Positions 17,801-29,800 of a stretch of DNA of 64,000 bases are shown here, in pieces. The number at the start of each line of letters is the position of its first letter. Within the stretch, counting starts at the first letter, position 1. Location: the NCBI RefSeq assembly GCF_963676685.1, contig NC_092347.1:46500001-46564000 (forward strand), written 5' to 3'. Source of the stretch: Mytilus edulis (taxonomy: Eukaryota). Below the pieces are notes generated by a model. The model was not told the origin of the DNA, searched no databases, and worked only from the letters and a program-made list of their open reading frames with translations. The position numbers and the translations under genes are program-made.

Positions 17801-20800
17801 CACTTACATGATAATGCATATTGCGAGGATTATATTGGTCCTTGGAATTCTGTCAAATAAAATAAATACATTTGAACAAGTTATACAATATAATTAACAT
17901 GACAAAGATTATAATATTTATCCTATATAACATACATCAAAAAGATAACTTAGGATCTTGTGAATTATATATTGCCTATAGTAGTGCTCTCTTGATAGTG
18001 TGATTATCTGTATTTAGACGGGCCATGTTTTTGGGTCAACTCAAAGACTTTACCATTGGAATTAGCTGCTTATCTGTCAAGCAGGCAGAATTTAGCAGTA
18101 AGATCAAAGACTCGTTGGTTGGAGACAGAACAATGTCTCTGGCTAGGATCATAGGATGACTATCTACCTGCAGACTGTTACCTCTCAAAAAAGCACATGA
18201 AAAATTCAAATCAATGTGTTCGTCTAGTACAAAGCAGGATCAATATTCATATCTCATTAACATACTCTTGTCCTGATATGCATATGATTTAATTTTGGAT
18301 GCAACAAGTGTTTTGATTGGCTGATGTTATTTTGTTATTAGCCCATAGACATAATTTAGTCATGTGACCGTGACATCATCAACGTTTTTTCATGGTTTTC
18401 TACGGTTAAAATGGAATTTAGAATTAAATTATAAGAAATGACTGTAATATTTTTTCTGTCTATTCAAAATAACATAAAAAATTCGGTGCACACTGTTAAA
18501 TAATCCGCTACGCGCGTTATTCAGCTCTTCAACTTTGTATTTGTTTGGCTTTTTAATTATTTTGATCTGAGCGTCACTGATGAGTCTTATGTAGACGAAA
18601 CGCGCGTCTGGCGTATAAAATTATAATCCTGGTACTTTTGATAACTATTATTCAGTGTGCACCAAATGTTTTATGTTATTTCTTCATAGACAGAAACAAT
18701 ATTACAGTCATTCCTTAAGTAATATTTGTCACTGCTTGATGAACCCAGTCATCAGCATCATCATCATCTTCAAATATCAACATAATTCAAATAGGAGATA
18801 ACTGTATTATATTTCAAGCTCTGACAGCATCAGTTGGTGATTTGATGGTTACAAATTTAGTTAACTGGGAATGCCTTAGTGGAGCCAGTAAACAGGTATT
18901 TGCAACCATCAAATCATCAATTGATGCAGTACGAGCTTAAAATATAATATTGTTATCTCCATTCTGATGAAACTGACAGAAAACATCAAATCATAAATTT
19001 AAAATCTGTCATATGTCATCTGCTGGCTTGAACATTTCATACTGATAGCATGAAAATTGGTGCCATATAAAATCAATAGAAATCAACAGAGAATATAAAA
19101 GATATGCCATCAACACCAAAAGAAGAAAAAAAGATGTAAAAGAATGTCCAATTTCAAAATGTATAAGGTCATGATTTAGGACAAGGGCAATTTAATTGGG
19201 GTCACTGAGAGCTTGTTTGTGAGTACTCAGCCATTCCTTAAATATCTCGCAATCACATCGCTAAAAGTATAGAGAAAACAAATTAAAAAAAAAATGATCC
19301 AGAAAAAAGATATAACTCCATATAATATCCTTATTACATTATCATACCCTGAAATTTTCAATTTTCAAATGAATTCTTAAGAAATCCTATTAGTGTTTTT
19401 TATTTGCATGCAACTCTTTAACACAGTATGTCGGAACTTAGTCACGAGTTTGATGAAAATGTCATCAAATGTTCATTATGATTCTTTTCATAGGCTTCAT
19501 TTTTGACATAAAAATGATCCTATTACTTTTATCATCTTAAAACAACATTATTTCTTAGCAAAAATAACTTAGTATTACGTGTACTTTAAAATATAATCCA
19601 TCGTATATTAATGGGTCATTAATAAAGGTTTTCTATTGATTTCAGTATGGTAAATAATAGATGTGGCCTTACTTTTGTTTGAATGTACTGTTAACTTGTC
19701 CTGACTTTATTAAGTAATTACTTGATTTTTAACGGGAATTAAAAAGTTTTTGTTTTTTTTGTACTAGGAAAATTGCTCCCATTATTTCATAGTCTTCTTT
19801 GAAAACACAACTTACATGCAGTCTGTTTATCAACCCATGTTGTTCAATGGATATTTGTAGGCGATTCTATAAGCACTAGAACTTGAGGTGATGTGGGGTT
19901 TCAGAAAGTATTTATTGCATACAATTTAAATTGATTGACCTGTAATCCAAAGATTTCTATAATATTCCACATCAAAATATTTTCCAAACAGAACAGTTTT
20001 CAAGTTATTTCTGGAGCATTTATAACTTTGTATTGTTTTCTGCTTACATGCTTCTAACTATGAATTTATTTTTTAGACAAGCTAGTACTTGAGTAAAAAG
20101 TTATGTCAATTTTTATAATTACCTTTGGAATTTGAGAGACAGCTGTGAAAAGGCTTCATACATTTTCTCACAGTCAAAACCTGTGAAAATTACAAGATTC
20201 ATATAAATGCAAAAAATACAATTCATAACAAAAACTTATTTTATCTATAAATCATTCTAACTTATTGTCTTCTTGCAACCATTCATCTGTAGTTTACTCT
20301 AAAATACAATTTCAGAAACGGGTCTTGAAAACTTAGTAATATAGAACAATGCCCACTTTAAATTAGATAAAATTTAGTATGCTAGTTTTTAATGTTTATT
20401 TCCTGTAATCAGCTTTCTTGTCAAGGTCTAGCAAATCTCTTTTGTATTTTGACAAATAAGTCAGTGCAAAATCAAGTCACAACTAATATTTACAAATTAC
20501 AAGTTTTATTGAAAAGTTAAGAAAAAAAGTGAAATAAAAGGTATTACATTTTTTTTAATTTTCTGTGAATTGATCGGATCAAACAAACTTCTTTTTTTTT
20601 TACATAAATAAGGACTTAAGTTTTCTAGTTTGAATTATTTTACATTGTCATTTCAGGGCCTTGTATAGCTGACTATGCGATATGGGCTTTGCTCATTGTT
20701 GAAGGCCGTATATTTGTTAATTACTGTGTCATTTTGGTCTCTTGTGGAGAGTTGCCTCATTGGTAATCATACCACATCTTCTTTTTTTATATTCTAAATG

Positions 20801-26800: not shown

Positions 26801-29800
26801 TCTTCAAATATAAAAATAAGATGTGGAATGATTGCCATGAGACAACTCTCTACAAGAGCCCAAATGACACAGAAATAAACAACTATAGGTCACTGTAAAG
26901 CCTTCAAAAATTAGCAAAGCCCATACCACATAGTCAGCTGAAAAAAGCCTTGAAATGACAAATGTCTTCAAAGAAGATTATTATAGATTTCCAAATAATA
27001 TGTCCCCTGTGGTGAGTTGTCTAAACAAATTCAGAGAATCATTGGATACAATCAGGATATCCAGGTCTAACTCTTTTTTTCTTCTATATTTCCAATTTAA
27101 TTTCATAAATGTGATCTTAGCTTATGACAGCATTCCAGGCCAAGTTTTGCAATAAATAAATTAAAAAACTTCATGCAGAAAACTGAATTTTTAACAGTTT
27201 ATAAAGATTATTGTTACCAAATTAAAAAATAAATAAGGACACCATTTAAACCTCTTGTATATAATAATATGTGCCTAATTATAATATCTTTTTATGTAAT
27301 CAAACTTGTAAAGGAAAATCTCATTATTACATAATCTATACTCTAAATCCTAGTGATAAACAATGTATATTCAATGTCTATTATTTCTAGATCATATAAC
27401 TTTTACATGATTTAACTTAAATTAAATCATATTTCAATAAACTAGCATAAACAAGACCACAAAGTATCTACAAATCTAGTATAAAGGTGGTACCTAACAC
27501 TACAGGGAGGTAACTCTGTAAAATTAGCTAAATGTTTTAATTACGTTGCGTTGTTACTTTAAGGGAATATTAAGCTTTTCAATGTTCAAAATAAGGGTTT
27601 GTCAAAGTGCTATATAACCAGTGTAATTTTTCTGATGAAATTTTTATATTTTTGTCAAAGAGTCAAAGTAAATACTTTTACAAAATTTTATAAAAATTAA
27701 ACAAGCCAAATTAATTTTAGATAAGGTTTTGGGTACCACCTTAAATCTCTCCAAAGGTTTATTTTCTCATCTGTTTTGTCTAACTCCTCCTTAGCAAAAT
27801 TTCATTTTAGTATCTGCTTTTCAGACAGCTCTGAGACAAGTTAAACATGTATTATTTATATACAGAGTCATTTAAGGGGAACCTTAGCAAAGCACAAAAT
27901 GGTACTTGACAAAAATGGTTTGCTATAATGTCGTCTTCATTTAAGTCCTAATAAATGGAATAAACATAGTAACAACTTCATTTTAAGCAATGCTTTGGTT
28001 ACCCTGTGTTTACTGTTTTATCAAAACAGCTGAGGATTTACAAATGTATGAACAATATGATTGAGTTGTAACTTACCAATCGTCCCCTCCCCCTGATCTT
28101 GGAGTGAAAGCAGAAGAAATTCTGGGAGATATATAGATGTCCCTGGAGAAGAATGTCTCCAATAAAGGCACAGGAAAAATCTGTCAAAATATAATTGTAA
28201 TATTAATATATTCTTAGACAATTGTAGAAAAAGGATTTGATGTTATGGTTAAAACTCACTGAAATGTTTCTGTTTACTTTATATGTAACTTGTATCTATA
28301 TCTATTTGTTTAATGTTTGATTGTCTTTCAGTAGACTGTTGAATTAGCTTTGTTGCATATAATACTAGTGTAAAACATTGCATATTCATACTTCAGCTAG
28401 ATATGCTGATTATCACTGAAATAGTACATATTTTGGATTAGGGGCCAGCTGAAGCCTGCTTCCAGGTGAAGGATTATCTCCCTGTGTTGAAGAGCCATTG
28501 GTGGCCTTCAGCTGTTTTCTACTCTTTGGTCAGGTTGATGTCGCTTTAACACATTCTCCATTTCCATTCTCAATTTTATTGTATCACAACTGAAAAATGT
28601 CCTCTGAACATTATATCAATAAAATTACATAATATCATTGAATTTGTTGAAGGTACCATATGTCAGCGTTCGATAGTTCCAATGTCTGATCTATTTTTGT
28701 TAAAAAGTTCTCAAATCTGAACTATTTTTATCAAAAATTACAAGTAAGAACTTTGCCATATATTTGGATATTTTAAAAGACTTTGTCAATATATCCCCTC
28801 TGACTGTTTGGTTTGTATATAGTTTCACTATAAATACAAATCATTCATTGAAAATTTCAATAAATATCGAACATTTTTATGTCTTTGATTGATCAACAAC
28901 AATTTGAACTTGTAATTATATTTTCCAACTAAAATAAATCCTCTAGAAACTAATACTATGCTTTCTTACAATATTGACATTTGAAGCCCCTTTATATCTT
29001 TTGAACTTGGGTTTTTGATTGTGTCAAATTTCAGAACCTAATTCATTTTGCCATTTAAATCATTTTTAAAACCCATTAATCTATAAAATAAAAAGTGTGA
29101 GACGATTTAATGGCCATTTCATTTCAAACAATTCAAGAAAAATCTTTTATGCTCTTTAATTATACAAAAGTACACGTGCTATCACAAGAAATAATGCCAG
29201 CAAAATCCTCGCCAAAATCGATCACTATGTTCTAAGTTAAATAATCAATGACATATATTTTAACAATGAATTAAAACATTACAAGGCTGTGAATCAAATA
29301 AACCTATAAATACCATCTAGAAATAGACTTGATTCACTGATAGGGCTTAAAGACAGATTAAAACATTTTAATTGCAGTAATTTTCAAAAGATGTTACAGT
29401 TCATGTCAGGAACTGACAACTGCTTGCATGCAAGGATGTTTATTACAAAGGATCAGCATTAAATGCAATTTAACCTTTGCTATTTTCTTATACTGTTACT
29501 TGTATGAATAATTCTTATGTCCATGAATTCAAAAATATTTAGACCCAGTGTGATTCAAATTGAAGTAATGCATGGTTTCAGGGAATTACAAAAACTTGAT
29601 CAGATAAACAGAAATCCAACTACCAGTGTTGGAATTTGCACAAACTGCTTTTCAATTTTAGAAGACTTGAATGGGAAATGCAGAGTTTTTGCCTAAAATT
29701 AAAAGGATAAAAAAAAGGATTTCATAAAGTGTAATTGTTAGTTATCACAATACATGAGACAATTAAGAGCTTGAATATCTTTCTTTCTTTAAGTTTCTAA

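Follow-up and report, generated by a model that had tools for sequence, protein, structure and literature searches.

Within a 64,000-nt stretch of Mytilus edulis DNA (contig NC_092347.1, positions 46,500,001 to 46,564,000; hereafter the window, with coordinates counted from its first base), a 123-bp insert carrying a hammerhead ribozyme interrupts a dispersed repeat, and it raises the question of which element it comes from and which enzyme copied it into place. Judged by its sequence, the copy at 18525..18647 comprises the final 123 nt of the already described Mytilus retrozyme without long terminal repeats (LTRs), inserted in another repeat. That retrozyme opens with a hairpin also found in Naiads, a hammerhead-free clade of Penelope-like elements, and the insert was probably made by a Naiad reverse transcriptase (RT) that would bind the shared hairpin and start just upstream of it. 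The retrozyme family itself is already published and the copy in the window is ordinary; what the genome sequence offers is a well-supported lead to a candidate helper and a candidate start signal of this family. The features of the insert are as follows.

18517..18524, plus strand: left copy of the 8-bp target duplication, TTATTCAG, its last G common to monomer position 232
18525..18647, plus strand: 5'-truncated retrozyme copy, monomer positions 233-355, the last 123 nt of a 355-bp unit
18571..18614, plus strand: type I hammerhead with stem I of 6 bp, stem II of 4 bp with a 5-nt loop, and helix III of 2 bp
18609..18647, plus strand: 39-nt tail past the predicted cut site, stopping at the family's fixed 3' end
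18648..18655, plus strand: right copy of the 8-bp target duplication, TTATTCAG, its first two T common to the element's continuation

Element and duplication have a single base in common on the 5' side and two bases on the 3' side. Twenty loci of the interrupted repeat, one of them this window, were retrieved from 40 scored, and sequence comparison reveals a single TTATTCAG and no insert in 19 of the 19 others. The duplication is therefore genuine, in agreement with the initial annotation, which had proposed a retroposed insert with an 8-bp duplication and had missed that the insertion target is a common repeat. The right TTATTCAG falls within an arm of that repeat's inverted repeat; a chance origin of the duplication from the inverted arms is ruled out by the same 19 empty copies. 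A ribozyme-bearing subfamily of the host repeat was rejected since the other host copies are empty, and a 123-bp family of its own was rejected since the insert is the end of the 355-bp unit. The best other copies match the 123-nt insert at 98% identity. The insert holds no second ribozyme, and a scan with a model of the leader hairpin described below found no match anywhere in the window. A single, truncated copy with one ribozyme and no leader is likely inactive, and it is predicted to yield no circle and to make no further move.

The hammerhead is real and of the canonical metazoan type I. Stem I pairs 18571-18576 with 18609-18614 (6 bp, two of them G-U), CUGAUGA occupies 18577-18583, stem II 18584-18587 and 18593-18596, GAAA 18597-18600, and ACGCGCGT, the 8-nt palindrome of helix III, 18600-18607, where it forms two base pairs and a GCGC tetraloop; C17 is 18608, after which the cut is predicted. 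The intact core and stems that had been described are thus present in the sequence, and the Infernal comparison with Rfam Hammerhead_1 (RF00163) that had been proposed gives a full-length match over 18571-18614 at 33 bits (E 4.4e-6), all pairs standard. Since this score is 1 bit below the gathering score of 34, a gathering-level Rfam scan of the window found no match. The loose core pattern alone lies within chance, being also present in 18 of 100 shuffles, and a point against the fold is that it is not the lowest-energy fold of the copy (-5.7 vs -9.2 kcal/mol; z +0.8). Because neither the loose core nor the fold energy is informative, the case for a ribozyme rests on the model match together with copy number: the exact 32-nt core is kept in 8,118 copies (4,199 + 3,919) across 1.37 Gb, with 0 for the reversed control.

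The motif had been called minimal, of the kind found in Penelope terminal repeats, and this class does not hold. The minimal hammerheads of Penelope pseudo-LTRs have the type I topology and a palindromic helix III region in common with the ribozyme of the insert, and are described with a long helix II (7-8 bp), a helix I that has 4-5 bp, an additional unpaired base behind A9 and a helix III that is absent or nearly so, with one pair (Cervera and de la Pena 2014, PMC4209133). In the insert, by contrast, helix II has 4 bp and helix I has 6 bp, A9 is followed by no additional base and helix III has 2 bp, which corresponds to the canonical type of the same report (helix I 6 bp, helix II 4 bp, helix III 1-2 bp, palindromic loop). 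True minimal hammerheads are found in the same genome at other Penelope-like loci (L081, L082, L107/L126).

The source unit is a 355-bp non-coding monomer that occurs singly and as tandem arrays of 2 to 7 or more units spaced at 354-356 bp, and it belongs to a dispersed, high-copy family with a GC content below 50% and no LTRs. Compared by eye, the monomer matches the 375-nt M. galloprovincialis retrozyme (PMC4918200 Additional file 11, Cervera et al. 2016) in ribozyme, tail and leader, as a sister subfamily. The two are alike in their tandem units (~350-390 bp in M. galloprovincialis, with one type I hammerhead each), thousands of copies and low GC content; the insert in the window, unlike the published tandem units, is a truncated single. 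In the mussel, ~5,000 hammerheads of two families are reported in ~350-390-bp repeats, retrozyme circles are abundant and the main RNA form in tissue, and Penelope-like elements are proposed as likely helpers (PMC7229834, Cervera and de la Pena 2020). The active or recent family that the initial annotation expected is present, being both young and abundant. The core is invariant in 62 young copies, a sample biased by the manner of picking.

RNA evidence came from one stranded run under the same species label, of which about 6% was read. On a monomer, 5,994 reads were placed, and first-mate depth was higher on the minus strand (~730-1,840 vs 100-760). Since first mates are antisense to RNA in the host-gene reads, transcription proceeds mainly on the ribozyme strand. 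This result holds at the level of the family, the reads not being assignable to a single copy.

The anatomy of insertions was read from the first 30 exact-core matches of contig C1, which include 24 distinct insertions. Their 5' ends lie at 19 different places and their lengths range from 90 to 848 bp; in 19 of the 24, however, the 3' end lies at monomer position 352-355. This fixed 3' end is 39 nt past the cut site and carries neither poly(A) nor a short tandem tail. Because insertions run these 39 nt past the cut site, the template RNA must have been continuous across it, from which we infer that it was uncut RNA or a re-closed circle and not the cut linear monomer. Single insertions extend up to 7 or more units (L024).

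A partner with the same end was sought among Penelope-like elements. A GIY-YIG search of the genome gave 150 scored matches, of which 30 short loci and 18 longer loci were examined. In these, no Penelope-like element with a C-terminal endonuclease had an end in common with the retrozyme, and only incidental retrozyme pieces were present; such elements were rejected as a source for want of a common end or leader. In the search for copies beside RT and GIY-YIG frames that had been suggested, these loci hold only incidental pieces, and the proposed origin in a Penelope terminal repeat gives way to a non-coding unit. One GIY-YIG locus is a Naiad, whose start just after the pseudo-LTR resembled retrozyme nt 1-60, and three Naiad families (A, B and C) were found via the endonuclease of this locus. 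These candidates have GIY-YIG N-terminal to the RT and form pseudo-LTR tandems; CxC and DKA motifs were read in family A, which is Naiad_Mgal of the PMC8557442 supplement, and in family C dozens of copies are nearly identical and keep their 1,000-aa frames intact. The RVT_1 scores of families B and C are below the Pfam cut-off. A Penelope-like partner is likely, as had been supposed, and it probably belongs to the Naiads, a clade without hammerheads.

A ~60-nt bulged hairpin opens the retrozyme monomer and all three Naiad families in the same register. Monomer nt 1-70 score 86, 43 and 38 against Naiads C, B and A, respectively, values reached by 0 of 100 shuffles each (maxima 25-28), vs 18-25 against five other Penelope-like loci, where 3-88 of 100 shuffles score as high. 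In all five families, three of Naiads and two of retrozymes, terminal copies stop 2-10 nt short of the first stem (51, 8, 23, 14 and 14 copies), a count that includes only copies holding an anchor ~10 nt before the hairpin and leaves other ends uncounted. The five leaders have the same predicted fold (z -2.2, -1.7, -3.6, -2.2 and -3.6), consisting of two 6-bp stems, an invariant bulged stretch and a small hairpin, with an extra inserted hairpin in family A. In a first alignment, which includes one decayed copy, 97.6% of 84 cells are paired and 7 of 12 pairs are changed on both sides; in a second, 99.5% of 189 cells are paired and 6 of 21 pairs are changed on both sides. None of 500 shuffles reaches the observed pairing in either alignment, the covariation being drawn from 7-9 related sequences and the structure read from the same sequences. 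By leader, register and compensatory pairs, the retrozyme shares a terminal cis element with the Naiads.

The leader extends to published Naiads. The exact 11-nt leader core is present 11 times in the PMC8557442 supplement, which has 54 Naiad rows. Every occurrence belongs to a Naiad consensus and lies where the main body begins or close to that point (10 within ~60 nt of the record start, and one after an upstream stretch), in Naiads of bivalves, two hemichordate species and a fish. By eye, both stems of these elements keep 5 or 6 of 6 pairs with differing letters, one record being cut at its start, and one hemichordate Naiad carries an inserted hairpin exactly where family A has its own. The leader model matches the four Naiad loci given to it, those of B and C by construction, as well as two old retrozyme copies, and beyond those two copies it found nothing else in 16 other Penelope-like loci. 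An Rfam search with the Naiad leader returned one chance match (E 0.63) and no such family; by eye, the leader showed no apparent fit to twister, pistol, twister-sister or hepatitis delta virus-like ribozymes. The term 'hairpin' was not found in the main text of PMC8557442.

A second retrozyme family in the genome, 70% identical and with a 350-351-bp unit, forms arrays of up to 9 (L182-L208; for example G000:C1:41945303-41948128). Its helix III consists of A-U/U-A pairs with the same GCGC loop, and the same leader follows its own fixed end, ~34 nt past its own cut site. In a metagenome scan, both stems were present in 6 of 119 loci, including other retrozymes and a further Naiad-like start, and 109 of the 119 were GC-rich with no stems or Naiad match. 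Metagenome contigs L225, L247, L250 and L313 are AT-rich and hold other retrozyme-like units that keep the leader, with a hammerhead-like core ~260 nt downstream or 80-90 nt upstream of it. A small UUCG-capped hairpin stands directly after the leader in retrozyme units L008:1692-1708, L182 and L247 and is altered in L225; Naiads lack it there and have in common a different conserved stretch further downstream. A third dispersed repeat bearing a hammerhead (L009, L109/L123, L118, L120 and L128) has a CCGG loop in helix III and conserved sequence for at least 200 nt past the ribozyme, and no leader was found within 300 nt.

Naiads and the retrozyme are alike beyond the hairpin. Both place the 3' end of tandem copies just before the leader, and both display 5' truncation, partial tandems, AT-rich targets and unclear target duplications (for Naiads, Craig et al. 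2021, PMC8557442). They differ in that Naiads encode GIY-YIG followed by an RT and lack a canonical hammerhead, whereas the retrozyme is non-coding and carries one; moreover, the retrozyme shares no 3' untranslated region (UTR) with Naiad families A and C. Non-autonomous elements of Chlamys, in contrast, share 3' ends and not 5' leaders (PMC8557442). A biochemical parallel comes from PAc, a Poseidon element in Anolis (Frangieh et al. 2024, PMC11167929), whose protein nicks AT-rich DNA, starts inside the RNA in a stem-loop downstream of the hammerhead and needs RNA 3' of the start; cleavage is dispensable in vitro. As in the mussel, the start is internal and past the cut site, next to a stem-loop, and targets are AT-rich. 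PAc, however, belongs to another clade, places its signal in the start of an open reading frame and was demonstrated in vitro, where the Naiad case is read from genomes.

These parallels suggest a pathway that may operate as follows. Tandem arrays would be transcribed, mainly on the ribozyme strand as seen for the family; hammerheads would cut, and a host ligase would close ~355-nt circles, as published for the mussel family. The Naiad protein may then bind the ~60-nt leader hairpin, its GIY-YIG domain nicking AT-rich DNA and its RT starting within the RNA, 2-10 nt ahead of the hairpin on its 5' side, where ends are observed; the enzyme remains the candidate. Copying would pass the cut site after ~40 nt and continue to fall-off, presumably giving the observed pattern, in which copies are tandem or truncated and have a single fixed 3' end. 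At 18525..18647, copying would have stopped after 123 nt, with one ribozyme and no leader left. In its broadest form, for which we consider the balance only slightly favorable, the model holds that Naiads of bivalves, hemichordates and fish have a conserved ~60-nt 5' hairpin, with a bulge, bound by their telomerase-related RT so that copying starts a few bases upstream, and that retrozyme circles took over this hairpin and insert by rolling-circle copying through a 5' signal and not a 3' tail.

Several observations weigh against this account, including the restrictions given above with the end count and the covariation. Five of the 24 unselected insertions have their 3' end elsewhere. Target duplications of at least 6 nt, found in 7 of 43 copies vs 6.8% in controls, are not a family rule, and these seven include two junction artefacts and one microsatellite. 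Longer duplications (3 of 43 vs 0.8% in controls) comprise one retrozyme copy with a clear 35-bp duplication of the Penelope kind (30-40 bp), one microsatellite and one tandem repeat. RNA reads that run from monomer end to start fit arrays and circles alike. In 25 older incidental copies, 79% of the core is kept vs 76% of the flanks, with no sign of selection. No exact leader core is seen in 43 of the 54 published Naiad consensuses. Finally, the Poseidon protein has uncut RNA as its main substrate (PMC11167929), and a shared leader can reflect descent or a common promoter without being a start signal.

A Naiad helper could have used an uncut linear read-through multimer, hammerhead and circles being a side product, which we view as a possible but rather doubtful course. 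The 39 nt beyond the cut site are as compatible with uncut RNA as with a circle closed again, no pile-up of read ends was seen at the mussel cut site in the ~6% of one run that was read, and in the Poseidon system insertion is unaffected by hammerhead mutants and no reads end at its cut site (PMC11167929). Yet circles predominate in mussel tissue (PMC7229834), the hammerhead core is kept in both 70%-identical retrozyme families, and insertions of 7 or more units (L024) come easily by rolling circle, though a long array is a possible source. Another reading makes the leader an internal promoter or a relic of Naiad descent and has a different RT, from a hammerhead-bearing Poseidon or Neptune element or a long interspersed nuclear element (LINE), copy the retrozyme. 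Intact frames are present in several such families of this genome, vertebrate retrozymes are tied to pseudo-LTRs with Neptune and Poseidon widespread (bioRxiv 10.64898/2026.07.22.740005), and a promoter and a 5' intron lie at the same boundary in Penelope and Chlamys (PMC8557442). We nevertheless hold this unlikely: compensatory pairs indicate a folded single strand and not a double-stranded promoter, 3' ends are equally distant from the hairpin in retrozymes and Naiads, the leader is in none of the 16 other Penelope-like loci outside the two old retrozyme copies, and the fixed end lacks the poly(A) or short tandem tail.

The remaining explanations concern the copy itself. That it is a minimal Penelope terminal-repeat hammerhead able to cut only as a dimer, as first proposed, draws on the perfect 8-nt palindrome of helix III (duplex -13.3 kcal/mol), a palindrome that two further families retain with a different sequence, and on the report that short helices III hinder the cutting of monomers (PMC4209133). 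The canonical geometry and the 355-bp non-coding tandem source speak against it, as does a cloned mussel repeat with one ribozyme that cut co-transcriptionally at ~0.1/min (PMC7229834), and a review reports that most invertebrate hammerhead motifs cut as monomers (PMC7761336). We consider this version quite improbable, although the palindrome could permit dimers and dimer cutting may add to monomer cutting. Scarcely credible is a function of the copy in the GRAM-domain gene that contains it, for example in cutting an antisense transcript. Its core is intact and it lies within an expressed gene; however, it is young (98% to others), one of thousands, antisense to the pre-mRNA and inside another repeat, and the reads that cover it derive from the family as a whole, not being assignable to the locus. 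Copying by a Naiad RT from the shared hairpin remains our preferred explanation.

The papers cited leave open which enzyme moves animal retrozymes and which RNA signal a Penelope-like RT recognises. A covarying hairpin next to the fixed end of both retrozymes and Naiads supplies a candidate enzyme together with a candidate start site. If correct, the pair would be a helper and a parasite joined by a 5' leader, unlike the 3' tail of short interspersed nuclear element (SINE)-LINE pairs; it would account for the fixed end of pseudo-LTR tandems and would provide a compact RNA handle for a telomerase-related enzyme. Published mussel accounts, so far as the accessible text of PMC7229834 and Additional file 11 of PMC4918200 extends, name no helper clade and mention neither the fixed 3' end nor the leader hairpin. 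In vertebrates, too, retrozymes are described as non-autonomous sequences that rely on Penelope-like elements and are similar to them (Li et al., bioRxiv 10.64898/2026.07.22.740005); there the likeness, shown in Xenopus, is to the pseudo-LTR, whereas the mussel retrozyme resembles the 5' leader of a clade without hammerheads, and in that preprint no mollusc is sampled and Naiads appear only in a coral. A retrozyme-Naiad link was not found in the literature on retrozymes, Naiads and Penelope priming, with subscription journals, Repbase and two supplements out of reach.

The insert lies in the following surroundings.

18284..18718, no strand assigned: host repeat broken by the insert, ~305 bp when empty, dispersed and non-coding, with a long 3' inverted repeat
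17850..20122, minus strand: intron containing the insert, skipped by 11 junction reads and bounded by CT..AC on the plus strand
28077..28190, minus strand: GRAM-domain exon of the host gene (PF02893, 34.2 bits)

The ribozyme is on the plus strand and the spliced host gene on the minus strand, which bears out the antisense orientation that had been noted; the junction reads displayed cover some, not every, intron between 17850-20122 and 28077-28190. The host repeat has 1,878 candidate copies in the genome; 40 were scored, and the others among these are 94-95% identical. Among contigs from other individuals, none spanned the insertion site. The arms of its inverted repeat occupy 18432-18502 and 18646-18717, and the target site is at the loop-stem border of this long hairpin. 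The host repeat also holds ACGCGCGT at 18510-18517, a second occurrence of the helix III palindrome, whose last base is the first of the duplication; 18 of the 19 empty copies have it as well, and the match to helix III is probably a coincidence. Some 70 bp to the right of the host repeat, at 18787-18967, is a further inverted repeat with 70-nt arms, 83% complementary, and a 41-nt spacer.

Elsewhere in the genome, the shortest retrozyme copy seen is a 27-nt 3' end located within the 3' UTR of one Naiad A element (L112:1092-1118); it was considered as a shared terminus and rejected, being an insertion into that UTR. The 3' UTR of Naiad B (L159-L164; for example L161:5642-5868) contains a decayed retrozyme stretch corresponding to monomer positions 116-347 (~71%, with a broken core), upstream of the segment common to family A, and this is more likely a captured old insertion than the source of the retrozyme. 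In several copies of Penelope-like elements with a C-terminal endonuclease (L113-L115, L117, L119 and L125), the RT frame is preceded by another open frame, 300-425 codons long.

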